From positions 202,924 to 266,923 of the IMG/VR virus record IMGVR_UViG_3300036772_000425: a stretch of 64,000 bases of DNA. One strand, written 5' to 3'. Both the position numbers and the translations under genes were made by a program. Shown piece after piece: positions 2,753-52,767 of the stretch. Origin of the DNA: a virus. Under the pieces are notes generated by a model. That model saw only the letters and a program-made list of their open reading frames with translations. It had not been told where the DNA came from and did not search any database. How positions within the stretch are numbered: the first letter of the stretch is position 1; each line of letters opens with the position of its first letter.

Positions 2753-2756
2753 GTTC

Positions 2757-3560: not shown

Positions 3561-3946
3561 CAGTTCATCTCCTTCAGCTGCTTGGGTGTCACGACAGGGT
3601 CCACTTCTGAGGGTTGCACCAGCGGTGCATTCCCCATGCTCCAGGTGCATGCAGCGGAGGCGCTGACCACGATGCTCCAGAACCGACCGTCGATCCTGTT
3701 GATCACGTCGACCACCTCCGCCCTGATCCCGATCGCTGAGTACTCATTGCGCTCCATGTCGTTCCGCGGAGCACGGGTGATCGACATGGCGATGATGCAC
3801 GATGGTCCCTCGTTGTAGCGGGTGATCAACGCTCGTCCCAACGGACCGACCGTGTACCCTCGCCTGATCAGCTTGGCGACCAGGCGCTCCGCAACATCAT
3901 CGCTGTTCGCCACGATCCAGGCGTAGTACGTTTGAACATCAGCCAT
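3560..3946 (-). CDS. hypothetical protein
   Basis: 128 aa; translationally coupled (ATGA) to the Thg1-like gene. Confidence 0.5.
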   Translation of the reverse strand: MADVQTYYAWIVANSDDVAERLVAKLIRRGYTVGPLGRALITRYNEGPSCIIAMSITRAPRNDMERNEYSAIGIRAEVVDVINRIDGRFWSIVVSASAACTWSMGNAPLVQPSEVDPVVTPKQLKEMN

Positions 3947-12882: not shown

Positions 12883-12886
12883 GGTC

Positions 12887-14038: not shown

Positions 14039-14041
14039 AGA

Positions 14042-14353: not shown

Positions 14354-14400
14354 GTTTACCTCGAAGTCCTAAGGGACTACGGGTAAATAGCGATCAGCTG

Positions 14401-14877: not shown

Positions 14878-14911
14878 GGGATAGTACCCATATGAAGCAC
14901 CGTGTTTCAGT

Positions 14912-15910: not shown

Positions 15911-16531
15911 TCATGCCGGTCCGGCCGGCCCTCCAGGTTCGGCGCTGCCCTGTGCACGATCGGCGGGCGGTGCCTTGAACTTGTCTGCCGCCACGTCGGA
16001 GGAACCTTCGCCCGCCTCCATCCCATGATCATCGCGCAGGGTGCTCTCGAACGCATCAAGCACATCATCGCTGTACGTTTTGGCCAGGAAGCTCTTGGCT
16101 CGACGGATCAACGTGCTCCTGATCTCCAGGAGGCTATCGTAGTTCTGGATCAGGCGCACCACATCATTGCCGAACTTCTCCACGTCGATGGAGTCGAGCC
16201 CCGGTTTGGTGGTGTCATCTCCGGTCATGGCTGCGGCGCCCGGCGCCGCATCCCCAGGATCGGGCGGAGCGTCATCGTCTCCTGCCTCCAGGATCAGGTG
16301 ACCCTTCACCAGGTCACGCCAGTCCAGTGCTTCCATCTGATCGACTGATGCTTCAGGACCAGCACCGTCGGATTTCTTCGAGTCAGTTTCGTACTGTCCC
16401 AAGTAGCGATCGACCTGTGAGTCCAGGCTGTCGCCGCTGGCACCTGATTCATGGGCGAGCGAATCATCCTCCTCACGGAGGAGACGTGCCAAAGGTCCTT
16501 CTGTGAAGAGTTCTGTCAGACGTCGCATCAC
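15911..16531 (-). CDS. acidic hypothetical protein
   Basis: 206 aa; Asp/Glu-rich. Confidence 0.45.
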   Translation of the reverse strand: MMRRLTELFTEGPLARLLREEDDSLAHESGASGDSLDSQVDRYLGQYETDSKKSDGAGPEASVDQMEALDWRDLVKGHLILEAGDDDAPPDPGDAAPGAAAMTGDDTTKPGLDSIDVEKFGNDVVRLIQNYDSLLEIRSTLIRRAKSFLAKTYSDDVLDAFESTLRDDHGMEAGEGSSDVAADKFKAPPADRAQGSAEPGGPAGPA

Positions 16532-17244
16532 TTCACCGCCTCATGAATGGACTCAGCCTTCTTGAAGCGCTCAGAGATCACATCCCAGTTGAGTTCACGC
16601 ATCATAGCGACCAGGTATGACTTCTTGTCTGTCAGGTAGTCCTTTACGTAGGCATGTTCGTGCATGTCAATGACGATCAGGGGTTGGAGACCGACCATGA
16701 CGTCCTGGCTGTGGTTGCTGACGAAGGTGTTGACGTATCGCTTCAGGAAGGCGCTGTACCCGCACACGGCCCACCCGGTACCGCACGCCATCGCACAGCC
16801 CATGAAATCAGCCTGCCAATCGGCGAAGGTGCCGAAGTCACGTTCCAAGCGAAGGTACGGCAGAGAGTCCATGTACACTTCAGAGTGCGGATCAAAGCAG
16901 TTGGAGAAGTACAGCTCGTGAAGCCACACCGCGTTCATGTTGAATGTTTCATCGAGCTTCAGGCTCCTGTACGAGCTGTGCTTGCTGTCGGCCTCGGCAC
17001 GCTGAGCAGTGTCCAGCTCTGCAGAGACCCGATTCAAGGTCTCCAGGTATCCCTTGTACAGTGCACTGTGGGCGTCCTTCGTCTTTTGCGAGACGAACTC
17101 GCTGACCTGGTTGTACGGTTTCGGTTCCGCTACGTAGGATTCCTCCAAGAGTTCCTGGCGCAATGGCCCCAAGGATCGCTTGACGATGGCCTCCACGTCC
17201 ACGTCGGACAGCAGACCTCTCGATGCCTTCTTCGTCGTTCCCAT
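16528..17244 (-). CDS. Fe/Mn superoxide dismutase-like protein
   Basis: VIDMHEHAYVKDYLTDKKSYL matches the SOD DVWEHAYYLxYxNxRxxY motif; WLHELYF matches NHxxYW; all four putative metal ligands are present. Confidence 0.7.
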   Translation of the reverse strand: MGTTKKASRGLLSDVDVEAIVKRSLGPLRQELLEESYVAEPKPYNQVSEFVSQKTKDAHSALYKGYLETLNRVSAELDTAQRAEADSKHSSYRSLKLDETFNMNAVWLHELYFSNCFDPHSEVYMDSLPYLRLERDFGTFADWQADFMGCAMACGTGWAVCGYSAFLKRYVNTFVSNHSQDVMVGLQPLIVIDMHEHAYVKDYLTDKKSYLVAMMRELNWDVISERFKKAESIHEAVK

Positions 17245-18132: not shown

Positions 18133-18570
18133 TCACAAAAATTCCAACTCGACCGCGTCCAGCAGGCACAGGACCTCAACACCGGTCGATCGAAGAAGCT
18201 CGATCGGTGCAGGATCCCTGTACAGTTGGTCGTACACCACCCTGGTGATGTCCGCGTTGATGATCAACTTGGAGCACATCAGGCACGGGCTGTGCGTGAT
18301 GTACATGTGTTTCAGCTTGGGAAAACTGAAGTCGCACTTGACCAGCGCGTTCGTTTCAGCATGGATGTAACCGGATTTTCCAGGTTCCTCAGAATCAGGT
18401 ACGTGCGGACCACCCTTGTAGTTCCCATTGTACCCAATCGCAAGCACCGCCGTGTTGTCAGCCGGCACGACCAGGGCGCCCACCTGCAGGCGCCTGTCGT
18501 AGCTTCTGCCTGCAATGACGTGTGCCATTGACATCCAGGTCTGTGCCCAACCCTGCCGCCGTTGGTTCAT
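18133..18570 (-). CDS. dCMP deaminase (cytidine/deoxycytidylate deaminase family)
   Basis: zinc-binding HAETNAL and HSPCLMCSKLI (HxE...PCxxC). Confidence 0.8.
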   Translation of the reverse strand: MNQRRQGWAQTWMSMAHVIAGRSYDRRLQVGALVVPADNTAVLAIGYNGNYKGGPHVPDSEEPGKSGYIHAETNALVKCDFSFPKLKHMYITHSPCLMCSKLIINADITRVVYDQLYRDPAPIELLRSTGVEVLCLLDAVELEFL

Positions 18571-19700
18571 GCCCCCACCAGTCCCTGGAACAATTCCAGC
18601 TCCCTACGCTCCAGTTCCATACCGAGCTCCTTGCCCGAGAACCCGAGAGCCAACAGTGGGTCACCCCTGACAGGGTCCATGTCCATGTACTCTCCGAGCG
18701 CCATGATGTTCGGATCAAGTGAGATACCGCAACCGATGACGTACTCCAGGACCTCGGAGTCCGTCAGGCCTGATGACCTGATCCGTTTCCGGAGCCGGCT
18801 GGGCTCGGAACCGTCGAACCGGGAGAGCTCCAGCAGAGCCATGGTGCTACGAACCTCTCGATCGCTGTACTTCATGCTACGGAGGATCCGATCGACCTTC
18901 ACCGGATCGTTCGTAGACAGCAGGCCGGCAAGGAAGACGGGCACGCTGCGTGACATCACCGGGGGGTTGGTCCACAGGCCTGGGATGACACGTGCCCACA
19001 AATTGTGGTCCGTCATCAGATCACAGAACAGTTCGGGGCTCTGTGCGGTCGCCAGGGTCCGGATCAGTTCATCATGGATCCTTTCGGACGAGATCCCATC
19101 CAGGTCATGCGAGAGCAGGGCCCGTGATGTCGCAGGGTCCACCTGCCAACCGAACCGTGCGGCGAACCGGATCGCCCTGAGGACCCGAAGCTTGTCCTCA
19201 CGGAACCTCTCCTGTGGGTCCCCCACGGCCCGAAGGATCCCTGCTCGGATGTCGCTCAACCCGCCCACCAGGTCCACCACCTCTCGGGTTCGGATGTCGT
19301 AGAAGAGCGCATTGCAGGTCAGATCCCGACGTTGAACGTCCTCCACGATGGTCGCGAATCGGACCGTCGGGTGTCGACCTAACGACAGATCCTCTCGGAA
19401 GGTGGCGATCTCTACGTGCTCCGTCGCACCGGGCAATTCAGTGGCGATCACACCGAAGGCAGCGCCGACCTCCATCACCGGGTGACCGAGGGACGAAACG
19501 ATCGCCTTCACATCGTGGGGTGCAGCATCGGTAGCGAGATCAAGATCCTTCGGCACCAAGCCCAGCACAGCATCGCGAACGGCACCCCCAACCACGTACA
19601 GGGAAGAACCCCGTGAACTGAAGGCAGCCGCGAGCTCATCGAGAGATTCTGGCAGGGCGATCTGAAGGGATTGACGTTCCATTTCAGCAGACACTACCAC
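18567..19700 (-). CDS. tRNA nucleotidyltransferase (CCA-adding enzyme), head domain only
   Basis: GGAVRDAVLGLVPKDLDLATDA and RRDLTCNALFYD motifs of class II CCA/poly(A) polymerases; 377 aa, no HD domain. Confidence 0.85.
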   Translation of the reverse strand: MVVSAEMERQSLQIALPESLDELAAAFSSRGSSLYVVGGAVRDAVLGLVPKDLDLATDAAPHDVKAIVSSLGHPVMEVGAAFGVIATELPGATEHVEIATFREDLSLGRHPTVRFATIVEDVQRRDLTCNALFYDIRTREVVDLVGGLSDIRAGILRAVGDPQERFREDKLRVLRAIRFAARFGWQVDPATSRALLSHDLDGISSERIHDELIRTLATAQSPELFCDLMTDHNLWARVIPGLWTNPPVMSRSVPVFLAGLLSTNDPVKVDRILRSMKYSDREVRSTMALLELSRFDGSEPSRLRKRIRSSGLTDSEVLEYVIGCGISLDPNIMALGEYMDMDPVRGDPLLALGFSGKELGMELERRELELFQGLVGA

Positions 19701-19716: not shown

Positions 19717-20301
19717 TCACTTGGGATGATCGAGACGATTGTTCATGGAGATGTGGTGAGCGAAGCACCGCGGTTCGTACATGTCCTCGCCGCCCACCTC
19801 GATCCCGCTCTCAACCTCTGCACCCGTCACATGCTTCTTGTGAGTGTAGTGAGCATCATTGCTGCATTCGGTGCACACGGCTGAACACTTCTTGATCGCA
19901 GTTGCGTAAGGAAGGATCTTCTCAACCTCCTTGAAGGGCTTGCCGCTGTAGTCGAGTTCCAACGAAGAAACGACCACGCTGGTGCCGGCACGGTACAACC
20001 AGATCAGCACTTCAGCGATCCCTGGGATCATGAAAGCCTCATCGACCGCGACGAGATGAGGTTGTTCATCAAGCACGGTCAACGTGGTCAGGACATCAGA
20101 TCCAGTCTTCACGTTGACAGCAGGCCAACGCCAGCCCGAATGCGACACCACCTCATCCACGCTGTACCGAACATCAACGCAAGGCTTGAAAAGCACGGCC
20201 CGACGACGCTGGAACTTGTTACGCTCCAGTTCAGAGAGCGTCATGGTCGTCTTCCCAGACCACATCGGTCCTGTAAACACTTTGAACGTGGGATTCTGCA
20301 T
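19717..20301 (-). CDS. tdk: thymidine kinase
   Basis: FTGPMWSGKTT P-loop, VAVDEAF, C-terminal CxxC...C zinc ribbon; start at MQNPTFKV with ATGA overlap. Confidence 0.85.
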   Translation of the reverse strand: MQNPTFKVFTGPMWSGKTTMTLSELERNKFQRRRAVLFKPCVDVRYSVDEVVSHSGWRWPAVNVKTGSDVLTTLTVLDEQPHLVAVDEAFMIPGIAEVLIWLYRAGTSVVVSSLELDYSGKPFKEVEKILPYATAIKKCSAVCTECSNDAHYTHKKHVTGAEVESGIEVGGEDMYEPRCFAHHISMNNRLDHPK

Positions 20302-20870
20302 CAGCCCTCCTTTTCGGGTTCTAGTTGGACCACGTGAAACGGTTTCCTGACTCCGGCACAGTACTCTGCAGCGGCTGACAAGGCCATGTGGATCCGTTCG
20401 ATGGGGCCCATGGTTGCATCCTTGGTCGCGAACATAGCACCCAATGCGAAAGGGGCTCCGCATCCCACCGCAGCAAAATTCTCTAGAGGACAGCCGACCT
20501 GGTAGTCCGACTGGATCACGTACACATTCCCGTTGAAGCCTATCAGGAGCTCGGCGTCATGGAGCTCAAGTTCGTTCTCCTTCGTCATGGCGCCCTTGTC
20601 GCGCTGCAGGTTCCTAATAGCATCAACGAAGTCAGTGACCATGTACGCCATGTCATCCTTCTTCGAAGGCTGATCAGGGACCGAGAACCCATACTTCAGC
20701 AGCTGGCCGACCCTGAAACTTCCTGAGTAACCGATCACCGCCTCGTCGCCGGGGGTGATGAACACCTTCTCGTCAGAGTACAAGCAGATCCCAAGAGAAA
20801 CATCCACAGCGGCGCTGTCGCCGCCCATGTAGACGGTACCCTCGTGTTCAAGTGCCACGATGCAGGTCAC
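20301..20870 (-). CDS. HslV/proteasome-beta-like Ntn hydrolase (copy 1)
   Basis: N-terminus [20 protein letters not shown] matches HslV [30 protein letters not shown] matches AIGSGGPYA. Confidence 0.7.
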   Translation of the reverse strand: [189 protein letters not shown]

Positions 20871-20876: not shown

Positions 20877-21458
20877 TCAGTTCCAGGGACGGCGCTTGCT
20901 CTCGACGGTGATGATCACGAAGGGCGGTGCACACGCAGCGTTCGCCGTAGATGCATCGAGAGCGGTGAGAAGGCGCTTGCGAGGGTTGCTGATGTTCCGG
21001 GTGGCCCTCAAGGAGCCCAAGGCTAGCTGGCCACCCGAACCGGTGGAATCGAACCCGTCGGCGCTCTGGATCAGCTGGAAGTTTCCTTGCAGCTTGTAGA
21101 GCTTGCCACGGTACCCGAGCAGCATCTCCCCTTCGAACCTGACACCTGAACCTCCGCCGAACGGGTTCTTGTTCTCACCTGCAGCGTCCAGGTCCACCAA
21201 GCCCTTTCGGATCGCAGGGACAAGCTCGCTGACAAGGAAGTCCCGATCGTTGATCCCACCCACCTGGAACGGGAGATGGATGCTGTGCGCAAGGGCGTCC
21301 ATTACCTTCGGTGATCCGCAGACCCCGAAACCGATATCGTCCCTGCGAAACACCTTCGGATCCTTGATGATGGTGCGGTTCAAGGCTCCGTCGGTCCCGG
21401 CCGAATCAGCACCCAACCACACGGTGTCACCCTTCACGAGACCAACGATGCAGGTCAT
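20877..21458 (-). CDS. HslV/proteasome-beta-like Ntn hydrolase (copy 2)
   Basis: N-terminus MTCIVGLVKGDTVWLGADSAG; DSTGSGGQLALGS block; paralogous to the adjacent gene. Confidence 0.7.
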   Translation of the reverse strand: MTCIVGLVKGDTVWLGADSAGTDGALNRTIIKDPKVFRRDDIGFGVCGSPKVMDALAHSIHLPFQVGGINDRDFLVSELVPAIRKGLVDLDAAGENKNPFGGGSGVRFEGEMLLGYRGKLYKLQGNFQLIQSADGFDSTGSGGQLALGSLRATRNISNPRKRLLTALDASTANAACAPPFVIITVESKRRPWN

Positions 21459-21470: not shown

Positions 21471-21674
21471 TCAATCGTTCCAGTCAGATTGGGACAGGTT
21501 GGTGAGGAGCGAATCATCCTCACCCTTTCCTTCACAGATGCTGTAATTGTACAACCCACCCATAACTTCGAGCAGGATGAACTCCAGGTTGACGGTGCTC
21601 AAAGAGTCCAACTTGGAGCGTATGGCTGCCAGCGTCGCTGCCCTGCTCACCGTCAATGTAGAGTACGCGCTCAT
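21471..21674 (-). CDS. hypothetical protein
   Basis: 67-aa ORF. Confidence 0.35.
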   Translation of the reverse strand: MSAYSTLTVSRAATLAAIRSKLDSLSTVNLEFILLEVMGGLYNYSICEGKGEDDSLLTNLSQSDWND

Positions 21675-22432
21675 TCCTTCAGAAGGTACGGTGAATTCGG
21701 GTACAGTTCACGGTACTGTGCTTTGGTGATCGCATGGTGACCGGTGCGCCAGTAGTGATCCACCAGGAAGAAATGCCGCTCGTACACGTGGAGAGAGCTA
21801 ACCTGCCAGTGAACGTTGCCCACCGAAACGTTCAAATCCTTCGCAAGGCGGGTGAGGACTGTCCTCTGCCACGCAAGGTCGTTCTTGAACCCTAGGACAG
21901 CATCGTTGCTGCGCATCTGCACCACAGCATGGAGCGCACCACCCCTGATCAGGTACCCAACGGCGTTGGTGCACATGAAGTCGCTGCGCCCATCCAGGTT
22001 GTACTCTGCCCACATGGTGGGCCTGTTGTAGATCGCCTGGGCGCGCCGGCTCTCTGGGTTCAACCGGAGCTCAGCGAGGACATGCTCGTACTGAGAGTGG
22101 TTCTCAGGGCTGTACATGACCCATCCGTAGTTCGAATTGATGGTACCGTCCGTGCTGGCGATGGACTTCCAGACTGCAGGGATGTTCCCGGTGAGGTCAT
22201 TGACATTCCTGGACTGGGAATCGTACCAGGCTTCCTCACGTGCCACGTAATCCCAATCAACGAAGCCGAAGAGGGCGTCATCGTCCGTCAGGAAAGCAGC
22301 ACCGATGATTTCCAGTGTCCTGGACCCGACCAACTTCACCATCGCAGCCTCCCGATTGACAGCGGTGAAACCACCGGTGGCAAGGAGCCTGCAGAATTCG
22401 TTTCTGATGTCGTTTGAGCCGAGGATCCTCAT
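21671..22432 (-). CDS. thymidylate-synthase (ThyA)-family enzyme, probably a pyrimidine hydroxymethylase
   Basis: RRAQAIYNRP...FMCTNAVGY...VVQMRSNDAVLGFKNDLA aligns to ThyA RRIIVSAWN...PCHAFFQFY...LYQRSCDVFLGLPFNIAS; catalytic Cys and Q/D conserved; a separate ThyX is also present in the window. Confidence 0.7.
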   Translation of the reverse strand: MRILGSNDIRNEFCRLLATGGFTAVNREAAMVKLVGSRTLEIIGAAFLTDDDALFGFVDWDYVAREEAWYDSQSRNVNDLTGNIPAVWKSIASTDGTINSNYGWVMYSPENHSQYEHVLAELRLNPESRRAQAIYNRPTMWAEYNLDGRSDFMCTNAVGYLIRGGALHAVVQMRSNDAVLGFKNDLAWQRTVLTRLAKDLNVSVGNVHWQVSSLHVYERHFFLVDHYWRTGHHAITKAQYRELYPNSPYLLKE

Positions 22433-22644
22433 TCCTGTTCCGGCTCGACGGTATCAGCATCATCGTCAGTGGTTCCTGGAACTGCTGTCTCCGGTTGCTG
22501 CTGGTGTTCCAGGTCGTAGACACGAGCCTTCAGATCATCGATGTCAGTCCGGGTTCGGGCTTCCTGACCCGAACAGTCGAACGCAGCGCCTGCGCTCAGG
22601 AGGATGATACAAGTCCACATCATGAAACGTTCGGTTGAACCCAT
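22429..22644 (-). CDS. small secreted protein (signal peptide)
   Basis: MMWTCIILLSAGAAFDCSG N-terminus. Confidence 0.35.
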   Translation of the reverse strand: MGSTERFMMWTCIILLSAGAAFDCSGQEARTRTDIDDLKARVYDLEHQQQPETAVPGTTDDDADTVEPEQE

Positions 22645-22662: not shown

Positions 22663-23679
22663 TCACAGCCTCAGCTTCATCTTCTGAATGTTGGGCCAGC
22701 TTCGTTCGTACCACTCGACGGTACGATCGAGACCCTCCCAAAAACTGACCCGCGGACTGTACCCCAGCCGTTGCTGGATGTTCGTGATATCAGCACAGGT
22801 GTGCATCACATCGCCCGCCCTCCAGGGAGCGTCCGTCCGGGCGGCGTTTGGGTACCGCTTCATCAGTTCATCCATGATCTGCATGTTGCTGACGCTGCTT
22901 CCGCACGCTACGTTGAACCGTGCGGCCTCCAACGGTTCAACGTGCTCGGCCGCGGCGATGCATGCATCCACCACGTTGCCCACGTAGCACATGTCACGGG
23001 TCTGCTCCCCCGTCCCGTCGCTGCGCATCGGACGCCCCTGGTGGATGGCTGTCAACCATGCTGAAACAGCGGTAGAGTACGGGCTGTCACCCAGCTGGTT
23101 CTCGCCGAACACGTTGAAGAATCTCATGCACGCGGAGTCCAACCCGTAGAGCCTCCAGTACATCATGAGGTAGTCCTCAATGATGGATTTCTGCAGGGCG
23201 TAGGGTGACTTCGGATCCTTCGGATGCGATTCAGGAGTGGGTAGTGCGTCAGCACCACCGTACACGGAACTGCTGGAGGCGAAGATGACACGTGTCCGCG
23301 TGCCGCGGCACGCTTCCAGCAGGCTCAACGTCCTTGTCACGTTGGTGTCATTGGTCTCAACAGGATGTTCCACGGAGTAGCTGACCCTGGGCAGGGCCGC
23401 CAGGTGGAACACCGTGTCGTACGTGCCGGTCCTGATCCGGCGCCGTGGGGATCCGGTTGCAAAATCGCACTTGAAGAAGGTGGGACCAGCAGGAAACCGA
23501 TGCCCGGTCCAGTGCTCAGTGGTTGCCACGTCAGGTTGGATCAGCTGGCCCGGCAAGAACTCCCGGTGCCCGTTCGACAGGTCGTCGACCACATCGACTG
23601 ACCAACCCTTCTCGAAACATCGCTTGGCCAGGTTGCTCCCGATGAACCCAGCACCACCGGTGATCAGGACCACCCTCAT
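22663..23679 (-). CDS. NAD-dependent nucleotide-sugar epimerase/dehydratase (SDR)
   Basis: VLITGGAGFIGSNL Rossmann motif; YALQK (YxxxK) catalytic motif. Confidence 0.8.
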   Translation of the reverse strand: MRVVLITGGAGFIGSNLAKRCFEKGWSVDVVDDLSNGHREFLPGQLIQPDVATTEHWTGHRFPAGPTFFKCDFATGSPRRRIRTGTYDTVFHLAALPRVSYSVEHPVETNDTNVTRTLSLLEACRGTRTRVIFASSSSVYGGADALPTPESHPKDPKSPYALQKSIIEDYLMMYWRLYGLDSACMRFFNVFGENQLGDSPYSTAVSAWLTAIHQGRPMRSDGTGEQTRDMCYVGNVVDACIAAAEHVEPLEAARFNVACGSSVSNMQIMDELMKRYPNAARTDAPWRAGDVMHTCADITNIQQRLGYSPRVSFWEGLDRTVEWYERSWPNIQKMKLRL

Positions 23680-25013
23680 GATGGGTTCTCCTCGTTGGTC
23701 AGCAGGTCCATCTGCTTCATGGCGTAACGTGTCGTGGATTCGTACGAACAGCGCTCCCGGACCACGCGCAGCAGGTGAGCGTGCCAGATCGCAAGTCCCC
23801 GAGCATCACCATGATCGATGACATCGAGCATGTGACCCAACCTCTCGACCACGTTCGACCAGTCGGGCTTGACCACGAATGGGTACCCGCCGGCCTCTCG
23901 TGCAATGCTCGAATATTCATTGACATCCAACCACAGAGGTTTACAGCCCAACTCAATGCATTCTCGAGAGGCGGTACCACCGTACGTATCCTGATCATAG
24001 AGGCCGACCGCGATGTGACTGTTGCGCGCGACGAACTTGAACTCGTCCCTGGTCAACGAATCTGGGACCAGGTTCACGTACCCGTTCGGCCCACACATCT
24101 GCTCGAGCTCCTGGTTTGAGAACTTCTGGCTCGGGTTGCCGCATACCACCACGAAGTCCTGGTAGGTTTTCCTGAGCTCCGGGAGGATCTCGAACACGAA
24201 CTTCCCGCAGTTGGTGTAGTCGCTCGACCGTCCCATGCCACCGATCCTGTTCGGCACGAAGATCACCGTCCTTTTCCGGACCTTCTGCCGCCATTCAGCC
24301 TCCGTGAATCGCAGCTTATGCATGTCGATAGGCGCAGTGATCTCCTCCCGAGAGTACCCGTCATCCCAGGGCATCGACCGGTTTCGAACCGACATGACGA
24401 TGCCCTGCCTGTACACCTTCCTCATCTCAACAAAGAACTCTTCCATGGCGGACGCGCACTGCCAGAAGTTGAAATCCGCCTTGATCGCAGCTTCACATTG
24501 GCCCAACCACAAGGAGGCTTCTGCCGGGAACTTGGGGCAGGACGGCACGTCCACGAAGTGCGAATGTACGTAGAACTGGGGCCTGTACCCACCCTGCAGC
24601 ATGAACAGGGCCTTGAAGTTCCGCAGGTGCATCGGATCGTTGATGTAAACAGCATCGTACCTGCGTGCCGGATCGGCTCGATGCGTGCCGAGGTTGAGGC
24701 TGTGATGGCCGATGCCCTGGTAGTCAAAATCGTACCGGGTTGCCAACGCGTTGGGTTGGATCCAGTGCTCCAGGTACCGAACCCTGCCCGATTCGAACAG
24801 GTCTGGGTTGACATCATGTGGCGGGGTGACGACCTGGGTCTGACCGTCCAGGTTGAGACACGGACCCATGATGTCAACCTCCAACTCCGGACGAAGCTTC
24901 AGCATCTGCCGGATGCGGCCGGTGCACATCTGCCACCCAGAGTCGCATTCCAGGATGAATTTTCCGGAAGGGGTGTAGTTCGAGAGCTGCGGTTGGACCA
25001 ACAGTCGCGTCAT
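23676..25013 (-). CDS. GT-B fold glycosyltransferase (GT1/GT4-like)
   Basis: 445 aa; C-terminal domain ASRECIELGCKPLWLDV resembles the GT4 EX7E region. Confidence 0.6.
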   Translation of the reverse strand: MTRLLVQPQLSNYTPSGKFILECDSGWQMCTGRIRQMLKLRPELEVDIMGPCLNLDGQTQVVTPPHDVNPDLFESGRVRYLEHWIQPNALATRYDFDYQGIGHHSLNLGTHRADPARRYDAVYINDPMHLRNFKALFMLQGGYRPQFYVHSHFVDVPSCPKFPAEASLWLGQCEAAIKADFNFWQCASAMEEFFVEMRKVYRQGIVMSVRNRSMPWDDGYSREEITAPIDMHKLRFTEAEWRQKVRKRTVIFVPNRIGGMGRSSDYTNCGKFVFEILPELRKTYQDFVVVCGNPSQKFSNQELEQMCGPNGYVNLVPDSLTRDEFKFVARNSHIAVGLYDQDTYGGTASRECIELGCKPLWLDVNEYSSIAREAGGYPFVVKPDWSNVVERLGHMLDVIDHGDARGLAIWHAHLLRVVRERCSYESTTRYAMKQMDLLTNEENPS

Positions 25014-25500: not shown

Positions 25501-25549
25501 GTTTCATGGTATCTCCTGCTATGACGGGCTACATGCACCTAGTTATGCA

Positions 25550-26720: not shown

Positions 26721-27164
26721 TCAGTCCTTCTTCTTGATCAGTTGACGGATCTTGATCACAGAATCGGCTGACATGCGCCAACCCTCCTTCAACCATGAAC
26801 TGCCGTGCAGGAACACCCCTCCGTCCAAGAGCCAGAGGAAGTAGCAGCACTCATGCAAGGTCATTGCCACGTGCCCGTCAGTGTAGATGAGAGCATGGTC
26901 ATGGTCTGCATAGGAATCATCCCACTCAGGGAGTTCAACCTTTTCTCCGAAGTACTCCACCATGACTGGGAACATGTACGTCGGATGGTCTCCGTGCTCA
27001 TGTTCCAACAGTAACCCATCACGAGTGATGCTCCGGATCGGAAGGCCGTTCGGGCAATGGATCCGCCCTCCGTCGGCGATCGCCTTGTTGATCTGGCAGT
27101 CTGAGTTGCTGCAGAAGTTGTGGTACTCGCTGGTTTCCTTCCCGCACCAGATGCACATCTTCAT
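26721..27164 (-). CDS. zinc-finger-containing hypothetical protein
   Basis: N-terminal CIWCGK...CSNSDC; start at internal Met with ATGA coupling to the methyltransferase gene. Confidence 0.45.
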   Translation of the reverse strand: MKMCIWCGKETSEYHNFCSNSDCQINKAIADGGRIHCPNGLPIRSITRDGLLLEHEHGDHPTYMFPVMVEYFGEKVELPEWDDSYADHDHALIYTDGHVAMTLHECCYFLWLLDGGVFLHGSSWLKEGWRMSADSVIKIRQLIKKKD

Positions 27165-27787
27165 CAATGACCTCGCCAGTAGACACGGGTGTTGCGTTGG
27201 TAGAAGTCGGCCCAAGGCCTTCCTTGCAACAGAGCGGTGGGAGCCAGCATGACATGCCTGACCAGGTCTGACATGGCATCATGGACCACGTACCCGATCT
27301 CAACCATCTTTGCGATCACCTCATCCACCTCCTGGCAGTTCGGATGGGTCTCACCTGGCATCGGTTGCTGGCCGGGCCGCGCAGCGCTCAGGATCACCCA
27401 CTTCGGCTCCAGATCCCGGATCAGTTCGAAGAACCTGTGATCGTGCTCCACGGGCCAGTGCTCCAGCATCTCCAGGCTGAAAAGCAGGTCAACGTCTTGC
27501 AGGACAAGCGGGAGAAGCGGTTTCAGACCGCTGATCGTGGTCAGGTCGACACGCTGGAATTTGTGTTCTGGGATGACAAGCTGCTCCTTCGTCAAGGAGC
27601 AGCCATCGAACCCCATGCAAGGGACGCCCAGTTCGACCCAGCGTTTCAGGAAGTGCCCAGGTCCACACCCGAGCTCCACCACGGAATCCGGGGCTAACTT
27701 CTGGTCCAACATGTCAGCCAGCTGCTGACGGAAGTGGTGGGAGTACTTCAGACCACCGGCGTATGAAGCATGATCGTACGTCGTCAC
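27164..27787 (-). CDS. class I SAM-dependent methyltransferase
   Basis: motif I VVELGCGPGHF; motif post-II LLFSLEMLEH. Confidence 0.7.
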   Translation of the reverse strand: MTTYDHASYAGGLKYSHHFRQQLADMLDQKLAPDSVVELGCGPGHFLKRWVELGVPCMGFDGCSLTKEQLVIPEHKFQRVDLTTISGLKPLLPLVLQDVDLLFSLEMLEHWPVEHDHRFFELIRDLEPKWVILSAARPGQQPMPGETHPNCQEVDEVIAKMVEIGYVVHDAMSDLVRHVMLAPTALLQGRPWADFYQRNTRVYWRGH

Positions 27788-28320
27788 TTGATGAACTCCA
27801 TGATCTCAGAGACCTCCCTGTCAAGATCCTCATCGTCCACGTTCAGCTTCAACGTCCTGCACCTCGTGACGTTGTCAACGAAGTCGAAGTACTCATCGTG
27901 GATGGCGTCCAGGACGTGCGAGTCGATACGAGGATCAAGGTCGTCACTGATGCCGAGGTAGCTCGAGCGATGGCACAGCACGATCACCGCCCCGAGAGAG
28001 GCCCACATCTCGTCCATGTGCTTGATGATCTGCTGATCGGTTTTCCGACCGAGGACCTTCGAGTACACCCGTTCGCAGGGAAAACCTCGGTCGAAGATGA
28101 CGCTGTGCCCCGTCTGCTTCAGGACATCGAAGACCCGTGGGTCCGCGTACCTCATCTGGTTCAGGAAGGCTTCTCGCCTGGAGACCCTGCACGACAGGAA
28201 GGTGTCGTGCTCGCTCGATGCCTTGAAGTACGGGATCCCGGAGCGTCCGGCTAGTTCCTGACCGATCTCAGTTTTCCCGCAACGATCAGGACCACACAAG
28301 AACACGATGCGCTGCATCAT
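27784..28320 (-). CDS. P-loop kinase (dNMP/nucleoside kinase-like)
   Basis: Walker A LCGPDRCGKTE at the N-terminus; 178 aa. Confidence 0.55.
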   Translation of the reverse strand: MMQRIVFLCGPDRCGKTEIGQELAGRSGIPYFKASSEHDTFLSCRVSRREAFLNQMRYADPRVFDVLKQTGHSVIFDRGFPCERVYSKVLGRKTDQQIIKHMDEMWASLGAVIVLCHRSSYLGISDDLDPRIDSHVLDAIHDEYFDFVDNVTRCRTLKLNVDDEDLDREVSEIMEFIK

Positions 28321-29030: not shown

Positions 29031-30395
29031 TCATGCGATCAACTTCACCTTCCAGAGGCCGGTCGACACCCCGAAATCATCCTTCTTGACCTCCGCCACG
29101 TAGAGCCGGAAGGGTTCCAGGAGCTCCTTCGCAGTCCATACGCTCAACCGGATCGGCTTTCCGATCGGCCCTGTGACAAAGACCTGGACGTAGTCCTTGC
29201 CTGCCTTCGACCTCTTCTTCAGGCCCGCCACCGGCTCTCCGCCCTTCTTCACGGTCGCCAACACCGTGACGAACCACACCACGTCAGTCTCACCGAGCTC
29301 CAGATCCTCGATGGATCCTACGCCCTTGTTGTCCATGCGCCCGAAGATCTCCGGATCGAACATGGTGGTGACGTCCGCGGTGCCGAAGAGCTCTGACTGG
29401 AACCCAGCGAGTTCACGTTGGGTCCATTCCTCCGAAAAATCATCACGAAGACCGCGGGCCAGGCCGTACAGGTTCTTCCTGCCCTCATGCCGATCCTTTG
29501 TGGGTGATCGCTTGATCATGGCACCGTGGTCGCGGACACGTTCGACCATCTCGGTGGATCCCTTCCTGCGTGGGACCTCCTCCGTGTACGAACCCATCAT
29601 GACCTCGTACATGTGACGGTAGCTGCCGAACAATCGATCATCACCGACGCAGTTCAGGCTGTCGAAGGCCCGGATCTTGATCAGGGCTTCCATCGCTTTC
29701 CTGTTGAGCTTGCTGGGGCGCCAGCTACCGTCCTCCGCGTACAGGAGAGCCTCAAGGTCAGAGAACGGACGGTTTGCCACGATCTCCTCGACAGCCGCCT
29801 CGCCGATCCCCTTGACCGTCGTCATGCTGGGCATCATCCGTTTCCCTGGCAGGATGGTCCAGCTCACGGTGGCATGGTTGATGTCGATGGGCACGATCTG
29901 GTATCCCAAGGAACGTGCCTCGCCGAACGCCTTCGCTCGATGGATGGGAGTGTGCGACATGGACTCCATGTATGCGCACAACCACTGTTCCTCGTAGTAC
30001 GTCAGGAGCCAAGAGCACCAGAAGCTGTCGATGGCATACGCCACCGCATGGCTCTTGTTGAAACCGTAACCTGCAAAGTACAGGATCTTGTCGAAGAGGT
30101 TGCTGGCCACGGCCTCCGTGTACCCATTGGTGATGGCGCCCTGGATGAAAGGATCCCGAATCTCCTTCTTTGCCTTCTCGGCAGCGGCTCCCACCAACTT
30201 CATGATGGCGCGACGGACCTCGTCGCACTTGTCCTTCGGGAACCCGGCGACCTTCTCGGCAAGTTCCATCACCTGCTCCTGAAAAATTATACAGTTATGC
30301 ACCAGAAGGTTATTTGCGAAGAAGTTGTGGTTCTTCTTGACCTGGATGTCGTACACCGGTTGGGCCGGTTTCCGCACGATCGACCGGATCTTCAT
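29031..30395 (-). CDS. dnaE: DNA polymerase III alpha subunit C-terminal fragment (DnaE-C) preceded by a split-intein C-fragment
   Basis: begins MKIRSIVRKPAQPVYDIQVKKNHNFFANNLLVHN|C (an Npu DnaE IntC-like VYDIGVERDHNFALKNGFIASN|C); the extein contains AGYGFNKSHAVAYA, the hallmark of DnaE. Confidence 0.85.
   Translation of the reverse strand: MKIRSIVRKPAQPVYDIQVKKNHNFFANNLLVHNCIIFQEQVMELAEKVAGFPKDKCDEVRRAIMKLVGAAAEKAKKEIRDPFIQGAITNGYTEAVASNLFDKILYFAGYGFNKSHAVAYAIDSFWCSWLLTYYEEQWLCAYMESMSHTPIHRAKAFGEARSLGYQIVPIDINHATVSWTILPGKRMMPSMTTVKGIGEAAVEEIVANRPFSDLEALLYAEDGSWRPSKLNRKAMEALIKIRAFDSLNCVGDDRLFGSYRHMYEVMMGSYTEEVPRRKGSTEMVERVRDHGAMIKRSPTKDRHEGRKNLYGLARGLRDDFSEEWTQRELAGFQSELFGTADVTTMFDPEIFGRMDNKGVGSIEDLELGETDVVWFVTVLATVKKGGEPVAGLKKRSKAGKDYVQVFVTGPIGKPIRLSVWTAKELLEPFRLYVAEVKKDDFGVSTGLWKVKLIA
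30294..30395 (-). mobile_element. split intein C-terminal fragment (IntC, 34 aa) of DnaE
   Basis: blocks F/G with terminal HN followed by the +1 Cys at 30291-30293. Confidence 0.8.
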
Positions 30396-30415
30396 GGGCG
30401 CAACGGTCTGCATGC

Positions 30416-31153
30416 CTACATTTTCCTCAATTTGCTGGGATAGTTCACTGCCTCGGACGCCCATACCCGATGGACGGTGTACCCGAGCGCCTCGCCAGCC
30501 CTCGTGAACGACAGGTCGATCCTGAACTGTCGTTTCATCTTGGGGGTGAGCTGGTGCATGTCAGGGTTGCCGTGCCAGTAGTCCCCGTCGAACTCCACGA
30601 TGAGCTTGATGGACGGGACGCAGAAGTCGAACTCATGGTTGATGGTGTCAACACGGAACCGATGGATGACCTCGTCACCGTGGATCGCCTCCAACACGCT
30701 CTTGAACGCGAGCTCAGCCTCCGAGTTCCGCTTCCGAGGTTTCTGCGTCTCGAGCCCTTTGCTGATCTTTCGAGAGTGTTCATCGAAGAAACCGGCCTCA
30801 TGTGAGCGCAGGTGCCATGTCAAACCGCGGTGTCGTTTGAAGATCCGACCGCACTGGTCGCAGGCCACGTCAGTCGCCTCATCGTTCGAACTGCAGTAGG
30901 ATCTGTGGGAACGCAGTGCCGTGTTGGAACAGAAGTCCTTCTTGCAAACATCGCACCGGTACTCACCCTCCTTCCGGACGTTCTCCCGCAGTTTCGCGAT
31001 CCTCAATTTCTCCAGGTGTTCATCGGTGAACTTTCGACCCTTGTATGTTCGGCGGCGCCATTCCGACAGGTGTTCGATGCAGCATGCGACAGACCGCACG
31101 TTGCGTGTCACGTACTGCTTGTCGCAGATAAGACACGTTCTGTTCAATTTCAT
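30416..31153 (-). CDS. C2H2 zinc-finger protein with C-terminal Vsr/DUF559-like endonuclease domain (putative free-standing homing endonuclease)
   Basis: two C2H2 fingers (CDVCKKDFCSNTALRSHRSYC; CDQCGRIFKRHRGLTWHLRSH); C-terminal IVEFDGDYWHG...D..R...L...GY.V.RVW matches the DUF559/Vsr-like fold signature; 20 nt upstream of IntC. Confidence 0.6.
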   Translation of the reverse strand: MKLNRTCLICDKQYVTRNVRSVACCIEHLSEWRRRTYKGRKFTDEHLEKLRIAKLRENVRKEGEYRCDVCKKDFCSNTALRSHRSYCSSNDEATDVACDQCGRIFKRHRGLTWHLRSHEAGFFDEHSRKISKGLETQKPRKRNSEAELAFKSVLEAIHGDEVIHRFRVDTINHEFDFCVPSIKLIVEFDGDYWHGNPDMHQLTPKMKRQFRIDLSFTRAGEALGYTVHRVWASEAVNYPSKLRKM

Positions 31154-31188: not shown

Positions 31189-32268
31189 ATGAGCGCCCTT
31201 GAGAAGGTTTCATACAAATTTGTGCAGTATGCAAAATCCTGCATCAGGCAGAACACAGAGGCTGCACTGCGTGATATGCGGATCCCATTGAACCCAGCTC
31301 AGTGGGATCAACTGGCGCCCATCATCTCAGCCTCGATCGATGAAGCTTACGCTCATGCATTTCCCGAACTAGACTCACTGATGCGATCGCCCGATAGCAT
31401 CGATCCAGAGACGTTCGACATCCCTGATGGTTTGATCGAATTCGCTGGTAAGATGACATCGCAGGCGAAGCGTAAGACTGCGGCCTTCACCATCGTTCGC
31501 AACGAATCCTTCTTCCTGGAACTGTGGTGCCGGTACTACGCTCGTGAGTTCGGAGCGAGCAACCTGTACATCCTGGACAACAGCACGTCAGACGGTAGCG
31601 TCGAAAGGATCAAGGTTCGATGGCCCGACATCAACATCGTCCTCGTGCCCAGTGTCGAAGCCATGCGATGGGCCTGGTGTACCAGCATCGTACGATGCTT
31701 CCAGAAGATCTGCCTGAAGGGTTACGATGTCGTGGTGTTCTCAGACGCTGATGAGTACCTGGTACCGGATGACGGACATGGACTGCGGGCCTACGTTGAA
31801 CGATTCCGAAATTCAGATCTGTCGTACGTTCGGGCCACCGGTTGGGGGGTGGTGCAGCAACTGGACACCGAGGGTTCGATCACCTCGCACGAACAGGTTC
31901 TTACTGATCGACGAAAGGCCTGGCGCACGAGGGCCTACGACAAGACATTGATCAGCAAGGTTCCCTTGGATTGGGCTAAAGGCAGTCACACCATTCGCAT
32001 CAACGGTGCGAAGATGACAGGTGATCCGTGCGATCCGACACTGTCGCTGGTTCACCTGCGTGACCTGGACGTTGCTATGTTCCACGAACGCTGCTTGAAG
32101 CTTGCTGCGCTGAACCCAGCCGGGCTACCTTTGGCGCACCACGGTTCTATCGACCTTCGTCAGATCGAGGAGTACTTTCGCACGCTGAAAGCCCCTTGGA
32201 ATCCACTGGCGATCCATTACGAAGGATCGCCAGTGGATGTTCCAGAGACCTGGCGCGCATCAATCTAG
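31189..32268 (+). CDS. GT-A-like glycosyltransferase family protein (DxD)
   Basis: FTIVRNESFFLELWCRYY...ILDNSTSDGS...VVFSDADEY pattern typical of GT-A nucleotide-diphospho-sugar transferases; plus strand between the dnaE halves. Confidence 0.45.
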   Translation: MSALEKVSYKFVQYAKSCIRQNTEAALRDMRIPLNPAQWDQLAPIISASIDEAYAHAFPELDSLMRSPDSIDPETFDIPDGLIEFAGKMTSQAKRKTAAFTIVRNESFFLELWCRYYAREFGASNLYILDNSTSDGSVERIKVRWPDINIVLVPSVEAMRWAWCTSIVRCFQKICLKGYDVVVFSDADEYLVPDDGHGLRAYVERFRNSDLSYVRATGWGVVQQLDTEGSITSHEQVLTDRRKAWRTRAYDKTLISKVPLDWAKGSHTIRINGAKMTGDPCDPTLSLVHLRDLDVAMFHERCLKLAALNPAGLPLAHHGSIDLRQIEEYFRTLKAPWNPLAIHYEGSPVDVPETWRASI

Positions 32269-35985: not shown

Positions 35986-35999
35986 AGAACACCCTACCA

Positions 36000-36569
36000 C
36001 TAAAGGTTGGCCCATTTCACAAGATACGCTTGAGCGTTCAAAACGAAGTCCCGATCTTCAACAACTGCCAGCTTCAAATTGCAATTTCGACACAACAATC
36101 CTCTGATCCTACCTGAGTTGTGATCATGATCGACTGCAGCGGAGTTCACATCGAAAGCTGATTTGCAGATCTCGCAAAGAAAATCCTGTGAGATCAGTTT
36201 GTCCCTGAACTCAGAATGACAAATCCCATAGTTCTTGATCCGACGAATGTCAGAACTCGTTGAAACGCACTCATCACAGTAAAGCTGGCTGCTGGAATTC
36301 AGCTTGAAGTTTTTCTTGCAGTGCTTGCAGCACTTGTCCTTCAAAGATCGATTACGTACAGCTTCGACAAGCTGCGGAGTTCTAACTTGTCTTTCACGTA
36401 CTAGTCCAAAACGATGGATAGCGTACTGAATCTGTCCTTGCGTCACCGTGAGACCGAGCGTCTCCAAACGATTCCCGATGATCGATGCCGACAATTTGTC
36501 AAGCATGTACCAAGCAACGATCTCTTGACGAAAGGCATCAAGTTTGATTTGAACTGCATTCATCTTCAA
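36000..36569 (-). CDS. Endonuclease VII (T4 gp49)-family HNH-like nuclease with N-terminal HTH-like domain; probable homing endonuclease
   Basis: AVDHDHNSGRIRGLLCRNCN hallmark plus CKHCKK upstream; the gene lies in a ~43% GC island. Confidence 0.65.
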   Translation of the reverse strand: MKMNAVQIKLDAFRQEIVAWYMLDKLSASIIGNRLETLGLTVTQGQIQYAIHRFGLVRERQVRTPQLVEAVRNRSLKDKCCKHCKKNFKLNSSSQLYCDECVSTSSDIRRIKNYGICHSEFRDKLISQDFLCEICKSAFDVNSAAVDHDHNSGRIRGLLCRNCNLKLAVVEDRDFVLNAQAYLVKWANL

Positions 36570-36572: not shown

Positions 36573-37532
36573 TCACTTGCACACCTTCCTGAAGTACTCG
36601 ATCGACAGGTCCAGCCCTTCTTCGAGCTGTACCCTGGCATCCCAACCCATGTAGGCTCGAGCCAATGAGGTGTCCGGGCGGCGCTGCAGCGGATCATCGC
36701 ACGGCAACGACCTGAACGTGATACCAACACCGAAGCGCTTGGCGACATTTTGGGCCAGCTCAAGGATCGTGAACTCGTTCGGATTGCCCATGTTCACCGG
36801 TCCGCCCGGATTCTTGGGTAGTTCACCCAAGGCCACGATGCCCCTGATCAGGTCGTCTACGTAGCAGAAGGAACGTGTCTGCGATCCGTCCCCGTAGACC
36901 GTGAGATCCTGGCCCCTGATGCCCTGGCAGATGAAGTTGCTGATCACTCGACCATCGTCGGGGTCCATGTTGGGACCGTAGGTGTTGAAGATCCTGACGA
37001 GCCGAGCGTCTGTTCCGTGCTTGTGAAGGTAGTCGTAGCACAGTGACTCAGCGGCGCGCTTCCCTTCATCGTAGCACGAACGTGGACCGTAGCTGTTGAC
37101 GCTGCCGCGGTACGCCTCAGCCTGTGGGATCAGTTCAGGGTCACCGTACACCTCAGAGGTCGATGCATGGACGATCCTGGCGCCCCTGTCGCCAGCAAAG
37201 TCCAGGATGTTCTTGGTGCCTACCACGCACGTCATCAACGTTTCGATCGGGATCCTCTGGTAGATGGGCGGCGAGGCCGGACACGCGAAGTTGTACGCGA
37301 CGTCAAGGCATCGGATCTTCTTCAAGGATCTCTGCCATCCTGTACTGGCAGAGATGTCGCCCTCTACCATGGTGAAGTTCGGATGTTCGCACAGGGCACG
37401 GTAGTGCGCGCTGCTACGGGTCGATGAACAGAAGTTGTCGATTCCAAAGACAAGATCTCCCTGGACAAGGTGATGCATCGACAGGTGCGATCCGAGGAAC
37501 CCAGCGGCGCCGGTGACCAGCACCCGCATCAT
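36573..37532 (-). CDS. UDP-glucuronate decarboxylase/UDP-xylose synthase-like SDR (NAD-dependent epimerase/dehydratase)
   Basis: VLVTGAAGFLGSHL; SEVYGDP; YDEGK (YxxxK); C-terminal QRRPDTSLARAYMGW typical of the UXS/ArnA-like subfamily. Confidence 0.75.
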   Translation of the reverse strand: MMRVLVTGAAGFLGSHLSMHHLVQGDLVFGIDNFCSSTRSSAHYRALCEHPNFTMVEGDISASTGWQRSLKKIRCLDVAYNFACPASPPIYQRIPIETLMTCVVGTKNILDFAGDRGARIVHASTSEVYGDPELIPQAEAYRGSVNSYGPRSCYDEGKRAAESLCYDYLHKHGTDARLVRIFNTYGPNMDPDDGRVISNFICQGIRGQDLTVYGDGSQTRSFCYVDDLIRGIVALGELPKNPGGPVNMGNPNEFTILELAQNVAKRFGVGITFRSLPCDDPLQRRPDTSLARAYMGWDARVQLEEGLDLSIEYFRKVCK

Positions 37533-52766: not shown

Positions 52767-52767
52767 C

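Follow-up and report, generated by a model that had tools for sequence, protein, structure and literature searches.

The T-even phages make 5-hydroxymethyl-dCMP (5hm-dCMP) with gp42, the dCMP hydroxymethylase (dCH), an enzyme of the thymidylate synthase (ThyA) family whose biochemistry is textbook knowledge. Two further ThyA homologues which were called dCMP hydroxymethylases, RB69 gp48 and DLP3 gp80, in fact make 5-hydroxy-dCMP (Lee et al., NAR 2026, PMC13326640). According to the residue code published for the family, N177D confers specificity for dCMP, L143D/E leads to a non-methyl product and the 5-hydroxy synthases are told apart by D169N (Lee et al. 2026, PMC13326640; positions here and below are given in E. 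coli ThyA numbering unless T4 is named). Glycosylation of 5-hydroxymethylcytosine (5hmC) has been demonstrated experimentally for adjacent phage pairs of a glycosyltransferase (GT) and a sugar epimerase (‘subclass II’), in which the GT needs the epimerase and the products are Hex-, HexNAc- or HexA-5hmC (bioRxiv 10.1101/2023.12.21.572611). The association of GTs of the GT-B fold with ThyA-like genes in metaviromes has already been surveyed in the same preprint. For huge or jumbo phages, the literature searched yielded no description of a hydroxymethylase pathway. Here, a ThyA homologue encoded at positions 21671-22432 (minus strand) of a 64,000-nucleotide stretch of viral DNA was analyzed (IMG/VR record IMGVR_UViG_3300036772_000425, positions 202,924 to 266,923; this whole stretch is called the window below). 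It originates from an uncultured phage with a contig of ~340 kb. The open reading frame (ORF) likely encodes a 5hm-dCMP synthase feeding modified DNA, as predicted from its sequence. The novelty lies not in the enzyme itself, but in where it is present and in the genes accompanying it.

Identity and active site of the ThyA homologue

The ORF runs from ATG to stop and has a third-position GC content of 0.74, on par with the other minus-strand genes of the window (overall GC 58%). Its translation includes SDFMCTNAVGY and AVLGFKNDLAWQ, as well as LGFKNDLA. The protein matched Pfam PF00303 (Thymidylat_synt) with 60.8 bits at a cut-off of 24.3 and, in PHROGs, phrog_160 ‘thymidylate synthase’ (3.6e-46). 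The top three PDB matches obtained with phmmer were the T4 dCH (1b49, 2.3e-72) and its mutants 6l18 (1.2e-71) and 6a9a (3.7e-70), and the alignments span residues 28-241. The best true ThyA among the PDB matches followed at an E value of 1.4e-11. In a tblastn search of 50,697 GenBank phage records, gp42 of Tevenvirinae was ~50% identical over 86-92% of the protein; compared directly, the window dCH and T4 gp42 share 50% identity over 224 residues. The identical protein is encoded on a 340,433-bp contig and on a 168.7-kb Logan contig. Judged by these matches, the ORF is an ordinary gp42 orthologue, divergent from ThyA yet no orphan.

For the active site, a MAFFT alignment was made from E. coli ThyA, T4 gp42, an RB69-type enzyme (phage CAU_ECP01, L007), the window protein and the 120 database entries most closely related to it, and 21 active-site columns were scored. 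The E. coli reference sequence had been checked against PDB 1aob and was identical over all 264 residues. The window protein carries D143, C146, D169 and D177, and this signature is invariant in 120/120 of the nearest relatives. Agreement with T4 gp42 was found at 18 of the 21 columns, the further matches being E58, W80, Y94, R126, R127, T147, M165, R166, S167, N168, G173, N176, H207 and Y209. Both HMMER against PDB and MAFFT placed the Cys of FMCTN (DFMCTN in T4) on E. coli C146 / T4 C148 and the Asp of GFKND (GFRND in T4) on E. coli N177 / T4 D179. Both columns are marked by the mutant chains in PDB, C148S in 6a9a and D179N in 6l18. Asp169 lies within RSND, as in T4. By the published code (PMC13326640), this signature is that of a 5hm-dCMP synthase and excludes 5-hydroxy-dCMP synthases, ThyA and dUMP hydroxymethylases. 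The protein shows every feature of the gp42 family which can be tested in a sequence and lacks those which define ThyA and the 5-hydroxy synthases.

The first-pass annotation of the window, made from the nucleotide letters alone, had described a highly divergent ThyA-family enzyme with an intact catalytic Cys and Q/D pair, in which the dUMP-specifying Asn of ThyA is replaced by Asp within LGFKNDLA, and had suggested a hydroxymethylase. The ORF, its family and the Cys were confirmed. The alignment to T4 gp42 and ThyA proposed there for scoring the specificity residue returned Asp, not Asn. Of the Q/D pair only D169 is kept, as position 165 is Met, like in T4. The divergence is real when measured against ThyA, but not against the gp42 family. 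The reading as a dCMP hydroxymethylase is supported more strongly than had been expected, because the T4 enzyme is the closest match and L143D and D169 accompany N177D.

If the enzyme works as its active site suggests, the catalytic Cys would attack dCMP at C6, an Asp in the place of ThyA N177 would read N3/N4 of cytosine, and the one-carbon unit would be taken from methylene-tetrahydrofolate (CH2-THF). The acidic residue replacing the hydrophobic L143 of ThyA would give water access to the exocyclic methylene, whereby the product should be 5hm-dCMP and not a 5-methyl nucleotide.

Gene cluster, conservation and proposed pathway

On the minus strand, the order in 5’ to 3’ direction is: a 445-aa GT of the GT-B fold, a nucleotide-sugar enzyme of the extended short-chain dehydrogenase/reductase (SDR) type (SDR1), a 71-aa ORF, dCH, a 67-aa ORF, two genes resembling N-terminal nucleophile (Ntn) hydrolases, thymidine kinase (TK), a CCA-adding enzyme and dCMP deaminase (coordinates in Table 1). 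The pairs GT-B/SDR1, 71-aa ORF/dCH and dCH/67-aa ORF each overlap by 4 bp, which is an operon-like packing. Promoter- or terminator-like signals above shuffled controls were not found across 17.5-29 kb. For the 71-aa ORF, the only match was HTH_39, a weak one (E 0.028), and relatives have small ORFs at the same place. The two Ntn-hydrolase-like genes are tandem paralogues beginning with MTCIV..., i.e., with Thr/Cys straight after Met, and are Ntn-hydrolase or proteasome-beta/HslV-like. They are kept directly downstream of dCH in relatives, and their sole Pfam signal is a faint PF00227 in the relative L008.

The 445-aa protein was recognized as a GT by its predicted structure only. Searches with the sequence gave no match in Pfam, PHROG, NCBIfam or PDB (phmmer, and hmmsearch with a 35-sequence profile), and none in the 50,697 phage records (tblastn); a Pfam search of 35 family members returned no significant family, and nothing for PF09198. 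Metagenomic homologues number 389, at 56-73% identity. An AlphaFold (AF2) model built from 35 homologues reached a predicted local distance difference test (pLDDT) of 90.2 and a predicted template modeling score (pTM) of 0.88. With Foldseek, this model had 264 matches in PDB at E ≤ 0.001, and the best 50 of the 264 are nearly all GT-B glycosyltransferases. The top matches were GlgM, OtsA, glycogen synthase, HepE, LmbT, BshA, PglA and PimA (E 4e-12 to 1e-8, template modeling (TM) score ~0.6-0.7). By type, these neighbours resemble the retaining enzymes of GT4, GT5 and GT20. Among the PDB neighbours are 3mbo, 8ixp, 7fg9, 8x3q and 2gej, which were also listed as top matches for phage glycosyl- and arabinosyltransferases from DNA-modification clusters (Lee et al. 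2026, PMC13326640). This is consistent with a role in DNA modification, but not specific for it. Far from significance (E 0.1), QTMAN_N was matched by 4/35 family members. This domain forms the N-terminus of the tRNA-queuosine mannosyltransferase, a GT-B enzyme glycosylating a nucleic-acid base; the match was noted as a lead and was not used as evidence.

The best PDB matches of SDR1 are the UDP-HexNAc 4-epimerases WbgU and WbpP (1e-46 to 1e-41), and the nearest NCBIfam models, TviC and GalE, both stayed under their cut-offs. Its motif SSSS...YxxxK presumably sets it apart from the 4,6-dehydratases with their TDE. Upstream of the GT-B gene, a P-loop protein is encoded which may be the 5hm-dCMP kinase: it matched Pfam AAA_28 under the cut-off and phrog_761 ‘thymidylate kinase’, and its AF2 model (pLDDT 86) had SPbeta YorR, deoxyadenosine kinases and thymidylate kinases as top Foldseek matches. 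With phmmer, PDB gave P-loop-level matches to AAA+ proteins only. The neighbouring methyltransferase-like protein has counterparts of 26-34% identity which adjoin the kinase gene in some relatives.

Outside of the cluster, a small pyrophosphatase of the MazG superfamily matched Pfam PF08761 (31.2 bits, cut-off 22.9). In tblastn with T4 gp56, the alignment to this ORF covered the C-terminal 61 aa with 30% identity (E 1.6e-4), and the motifs EExxE and EExxD are visible. Counterparts of the gene with 60-79% conservation occur at 21 IMG/VR loci, 6/21 of them on contigs which also have a GT-B locus. A plus-strand ORF at 52435-53124 was dismissed as an antisense artefact which had masked the real minus-strand genes for the gp56-like and an Hsp20-like protein. 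Further long plus-strand ORFs (e.g., 12725-13927, 25148-26146 and 41186-42166) have a low third-position GC or no match, and at least some of them are antisense artefacts as well.

From these parts, we infer the following scheme. The gp56-like pyrophosphatase would turn dCTP/dCDP (and dUTP) back to the monophosphate, and the gp42 orthologue would convert dCMP, CH2-THF and water to 5hm-dCMP. The kinase-like protein, together with the NDP kinase of the host, would then supply 5hm-dCTP, which the DnaE-type replicase of the phage would incorporate. After replication, the adjacent GT-B enzyme may decorate 5hmC in the DNA. The NDP-sugar for this step could come from the co-transcribed, 4-epimerase-like SDR1 and here perhaps also from a UDP-xylose synthase (UXS, SDR2). 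In parallel, dTTP would be made via dCMP deaminase, ThyX and dTMP kinase.

For conservation of the cluster, IMG/VR was scanned with the GT-B alignment, which gave 32 loci on contigs of up to 369 kb. A ThyA-family gene follows downstream of the GT-B gene in 30/32 loci, and the remaining two contigs end first. An SDR1 orthologue was present in 30/32 and the kinase-like gene upstream of GT-B likewise in 30/32 loci. All 30 ThyA homologues linked to GT-B have D143/C146/D169/D177. They fall into two classes, one with 48-69% identity and one with 27-35% identity (n=14) and longer proteins. This longer subfamily (269-360 aa) is found in L011, L013, L017, L018, L023, L025, L027, L030, L034, L035, L037 and L040-L042. 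Three metagenomic relatives, L004 (on a 369-kb contig), L008 and L010, keep the order kinase-like ... GT-B - SDR1 - dCH - Ntn x2 - TK - CCA - dCMP deaminase - superoxide dismutase (SOD). Their dCH proteins are 63-69% identical to the one of the window, and the kinase-like gene is 60-64% conserved in syntenic relatives. Within the syntenic block, L008 also encodes a UDP-galactopyranose mutase (GLF, 13704-14810). A true UXS orthologue (58-63% identity) occurs near GT-B in only 2/32 loci, hence, this gene looks accessory and is possibly mobile.

The unrelated 238-kb contig L009 has another architecture. Its dCH is 59% identical and lies near a true beta-GT homologue (13851-14978), which matched PF09198 and shares 27.5% identity with T4 beta-GT (E 6e-38). 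It also encodes CofD, NTP_transf_3, guanylate-kinase-like and PRA-PH pyrophosphatase genes. The sugar chemistry around this clade of dCH seems to vary.

Possible glycosylation of 5hmC and the alternative readings

Gene context, together with the parallels in T4 and in published GT-epimerase pairs, tips the balance modestly towards glycosylation of 5hmC by the adjacent GT-B enzyme, and the phage probably bears an uncharacterised sugar-decorated cytosine. More tentative, and in our estimate somewhat short of even, is the narrower reading that this uncultured clade makes 5hmC before replication and then attaches a non-glucose sugar (e.g., Gal/GalNAc or a UDP-xylose-derived pentose) with a new, epimerase-dependent family of GT-B enzymes, the sugar varying between sublineages. 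With the same reserve, the varying sugar genes might be UXS in the window genome and GLF in L008. Avoidance of palindromes was not seen in the window, neither for 4-mers nor for 6-mers (mean z of 6-mer palindromes +0.43), which agrees, if only weakly, with global protection of the DNA.

Several observations weigh against the pathway as proposed. The kinase-like protein has a generic deoxynucleoside kinase/thymidylate kinase fold match (E ~5e-6), by which the substrate is not fixed, and a tblastn search of the window with T4 gp1 gave no homologue (best E 1.1). The gp56-like protein could be merely a dUTPase. Lys28 of T4, a substrate contact, is not conserved and is Leu in dCH and Leu/Ile in the clade. 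The GT-B profile showed no relation to T4 alpha-GT or beta-GT (hhalign probability 0.4), and among viral structures the model comes closest to Arthrobacter-phage glycosyltransferases of unknown acceptor. All GT-B loci come from a single lineage, where unrelated neighbours share the synteny as well, hence, the counts given above are not independent, and the conserved order may reflect an inherited layout instead of functional coupling. Finally, genomes of the clade assemble readily from shotgun metagenomes, thus, their DNA is at least sequenceable.

The last points on the GT also feed the most serious alternative, namely that the 5hm-dCMP synthase is true and 5hmC is in the DNA, but GT-B, SDR1, UXS and a GT2-like enzyme serve other glycans, e.g., on a virion protein or on the host surface. 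The DNA would then contain bare 5hmC or another derivative. The structural similarity to the Arthrobacter-phage enzymes, the missing sequence link between GT-B and known DNA glycosyltransferases, and the fact that TK, SOD and the Ntn hydrolases, although unrelated, are just as syntenic within this single lineage all fit such a role. However, translation of GT-B and SDR1 is coupled, and the pair directly precedes dCH within a block for nucleotide metabolism and replication, not within a structural module. T4 and L009 independently place dCH next to a GT, GT-epimerase pairs acting on 5hmC are documented by experiment (bioRxiv 10.1101/2023.12.21.572611), and every GT-B locus which extends far enough has a ThyA homologue with the 5hm signature, including the deeply divergent subfamily. 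We therefore consider this alternative unlikely, though by no means negligible, and prefer glycosylation of 5hmC in the DNA by the GT-B enzyme.

The other alternatives concern the product of the ThyA homologue itself. It might be a flavin-dependent 5-hydroxy-dCMP synthase of the RB69 gp48 type, and 5-hydroxycytosine would later be glycosylated via an ether link. Enzymes of this type were long annotated as dCMP hydroxymethylases, have N177D and an acidic residue 143, and adjoin GT-B arabinosyltransferases and sugar-nucleotide genes. But the RB69-type control in our alignment has E143, C146, N169 and D177 and departs from T4 and the window protein at W80 and G173, where these two agree. The diagnostic D169N is absent: Asp169 was found in the window protein, in its 120 relatives and in the 30 homologues linked to GT-B. 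Identity to the RB69-type enzyme is ~25%, compared to ~50% for T4 gp42. This makes a 5-hydroxy-dCMP synthase highly improbable.

Still less probable is an enzyme acting on dUMP, either as a second thymidylate synthase or, like SPO1 gp29, as a dUMP hydroxymethylase. The Pfam family Thymidylat_synt and the database name ‘thymidylate synthase’ speak for it, but Asp occupies both position 177, where Asn specifies dUMP, and position 143 in place of Leu. Furthermore, the C-terminal segment with which ThyA closes over the folate is absent, as it is from T4 gp42, all NCBIfam equivalog models for ThyA scored far under their cut-offs (best 51.5 bits compared to 327), and ThyX is already present in the genome.

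The His207 and Tyr209 of ThyA contact the 3’-OH of deoxyribose. Both are conserved in the window protein as in ThyA and gp42, which, together with the setting in a phage block for replication and dNTP metabolism and a match to MilA over 60 orders of magnitude below the one to T4 gp42, makes it hardly conceivable that the protein is a MilA-like CMP hydroxymethylase for nucleoside-antibiotic-type small molecules, even though homology to MilA (PDB 5b6d) can be detected (E 5.9e-9) and MilA has both Asp substitutions. On D169, Asp143/177, homology and context, the readings as 5-hydroxy-dCMP synthase, ThyA, dUMP hydroxymethylase and MilA were rejected in favour of a 5hm-dCMP synthase.

Setting in the window and comparison with known systems

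Table 1. Positions of the features within the window, with the assignments obtained. SAM, S-adenosylmethionine; PNKP, polynucleotide kinase-phosphatase.
Feature	Coordinates	Strand	Details
Second P-loop nucleotide-kinase-like protein	2204..2797	-	probable start 2752; Pfam AAA_28 41.1 bits, cut-off 27
Thg1-like 3’-5’ polymerase	2757..3650	-	
Fe/Mn SOD	16528..17244	-	unusual in phages
dCMP deaminase	18133..18570	-	145 aa; Pfam dCMP_cyt_deam_1 4.7e-19; syntenic in relatives
CCA-adding/poly(A) polymerase	18567..19700	-	
TK	19717..20301	-	Pfam TK 3.4e-34; 194-aa gene call on Logan contig
Ntn-hydrolase-like paralogue	20301..20870	-	
Ntn-hydrolase-like paralogue	20877..21458	-	
dCH (5hm-dCMP synthase, predicted), T4 gp42 orthologue	21671..22432	-	253 aa, ATG to stop
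71-aa ORF	22429..22644	-	stop overlaps dCH start by 4 bp; gene call on Logan contig
SDR1, NDP-sugar 4-epimerase-like extended SDR	22663..23679	-	338 aa; Pfam Epimerase 8.7e-50
GT-B-fold glycosyltransferase, unclassified family	23676..25013	-	445 aa; predicted structure
Class I SAM-methyltransferase-like protein, weak assignment	27164..27787	-	207 aa; Pfam Methyltransf_23, _25, _11, all under gathering cut-offs
Nucleoside/nucleotide kinase-like P-loop protein, candidate 5hm-dCMP kinase	27784..28320	-	178 aa
DnaE/Pol III alpha, C-terminal part	29031..30464	-	
GT2-like (GT-A) glycosyltransferase	31189..32268	+	359 aa; Pfam Glyco_tranf_2_4 38.7 bits, cut-off 27.5; Logan contig gene call
DnaE/Pol III alpha, N-terminal part	33172..36015	-	
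SDR2, UDP-glucuronate decarboxylase (UXS)	36573..37532	-	319 aa; PDB human UXS1 E 1.2e-89
N6_N4_Mtase-family DNA methyltransferase	43162..43929	-	
RNA ligase	45572..46489	-	
PNKP	48695..49702	-	
Fatty-acid-hydroxylase-family membrane protein	50205..50783	-	unusual in phages
RlaP nucleotidyltransferase	51226..52173	-	
Hsp20-like protein	52257..52856	-	weak, E 0.01, under cut-off; unusual in phages
All-alpha NTP pyrophosphatase (dUTPase_2 / T4 gp56-like), MazG superfamily, candidate dCTPase/dUTPase	52768..53136	-	122 aa
MT-A70/Dam-like DNA methyltransferase	53492..54139	-	
Thymidylate kinase	54124..54732	-	202 aa; Pfam Thymidylate_kin 3.2e-18
ThyX flavin-dependent thymidylate synthase	54729..55727	-	332 aa; Pfam Thy1 45.8 bits, cut-off 24.8
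DnaB/gp41-like helicase			in window
Class II-like ribonucleotide reductase			in window
FEN nuclease			in window

The genes which the first-pass annotation had listed as fitting a hydroxymethyl-pyrimidine pathway were recovered (Table 1): ThyX, the dCMP deaminase, the MazG-like pyrophosphatase, the GT-B enzyme, two nucleotide-sugar SDR enzymes, which turned out to be 4-epimerase-like and a UXS, and two P-loop kinase-like proteins. The second of the latter also matched phrog_2107 ‘thymidylate kinase’ (3.8e-12). For the SAM methyltransferase, Pfam matches exist, but all of them are sub-threshold. It had further been stated that this is not a T4-like genome, and this holds. By megablast, the 6 kb around dCH had no match in the GenBank phage records, the DnaE-type polymerase is ≤ 26% identical to that of any GenBank phage, and only six ORFs of the window, dCH included, have any match within the initial 100 kb of T4. 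Using tblastn with T4 a-gt, b-gt, dam and dexA, nothing significant was found in the window; gp42 and the C-terminal end of gp56 were the sole T4 queries with a match.

Two separate halves encode DnaE/Pol III alpha (29031-36015, minus strand), and 30416-33150 lies between them. The N-terminal part closes with an intein N-fragment (CLTGDTRVM...), and the C-terminal part opens with an intein C-fragment of ~36 aa (MKIRSIVRK...LLVHN, followed by CIIFQEQ). This looks like a naturally split, trans-splicing DnaE intein in a phage. Three genes separate the halves: one for a C2H2-zinc-finger/DUF559 endonuclease, the GT2-like gene, which has the opposite orientation, and one for a 296-aa protein without assignment; the link of the GT2-like gene to the pathway is uncertain. 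In L004 and L008, DnaE is a single, intact protein of 1263 aa. Just downstream of the N-terminal half, UXS adjoins an Endonuclease VII-type gene (36000-37532 for both, minus strand). A UDP-glucose dehydrogenase was not seen in the window.

The window contains a complete set for RNA/tRNA repair, comprising the Thg1-like polymerase, the CCA-adding/poly(A) polymerase, the RNA ligase, PNKP and RlaP, and a tRNA scan of the window found no tRNA gene. A NUDIX protein is encoded as well. Two DNA methyltransferase genes are present. The motif GATC occurs 749 times in 64 kb with a Markov observed/expected ratio of 1.03, hence, its excess is due to composition and codon usage.

A pre-replicative 5hmC pathway appears to be a conserved core feature of widespread, uncultured, very large phages without a GenBank relative. 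In this lineage, the glucosyltransferases of the T-even phages would be replaced by an orphan GT-B family and a sugar epimerase, and accessory sugar genes (UXS, GLF) vary by sublineage. If the DNA indeed carries glycosylated 5hmC, this could partly explain resistance to restriction and CRISPR and would imply a biased recovery of such phages by some sequencing chemistries. It would also reveal a DNA glycosyltransferase family that is new, perhaps along with a further modified base, and would provide new reagents for the labelling of 5hmC. Should the sugar be other than glucose, a new branch of glycosyl-5hmC chemistry would be opened. Moreover, the dCH lineage offers an independent test of the three-residue code (143/169/177) for the products of ThyA homologues.

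Among the known systems, T4 is closest with respect to the enzyme. The window dCH has 253 aa and T4 gp42 (structures 1b49, 1b5d, 1b5e and 6a9b) 246 aa, and both have, in T4 numbering, Cys148, Asp179, Asp145, Asp171, Glu60, Arg123/124, Arg168, Ser169, His216 and Tyr218. As in T4, where beta-gt is the neighbour of gene 42, a glycosyltransferase gene lies beside the hydroxymethylase gene. Unlike T4, the phage has a DnaE-type polymerase instead of gp43, uses ThyX rather than Td for dTMP and is without homologues of the gp1 kinase, alpha-GT and beta-GT in the window. The 445-aa neighbour shares the GT-B fold with two Rossmann domains with the alpha- and beta-glucosyltransferases of T4, but has no sequence or profile similarity to them, and its structural neighbours are GT4/GT5/GT20-like. 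Its pairing with a sugar 4-epimerase suggests a donor other than UDP-glucose.

The clusters around RB69 gp48 and DLP3 gp80 (PMC13326640) are similar in that their ThyA homologue has N177D, is acidic at position 143 and is accompanied by GT-B transferases, a thymidylate-kinase-like kinase, a dCTPase and NDP-sugar genes. In contrast to the arabinose-5-phosphate isomerase and GlmU-like genes found there, the sugar genes of the window are a 4-epimerase and a UXS. The subclass II systems make 5hmC after replication with a C5-methyltransferase and a TET-like dioxygenase, whereas in the window phage it would be made before replication via the ThyA homologue. Since the preprint (10.1101/2023.12.21.572611) assigns the GT-B fold to subclass III only, the GTs of subclass II are presumably GT-A enzymes, whereas the epimerase-paired GT of the window has the GT-B fold.

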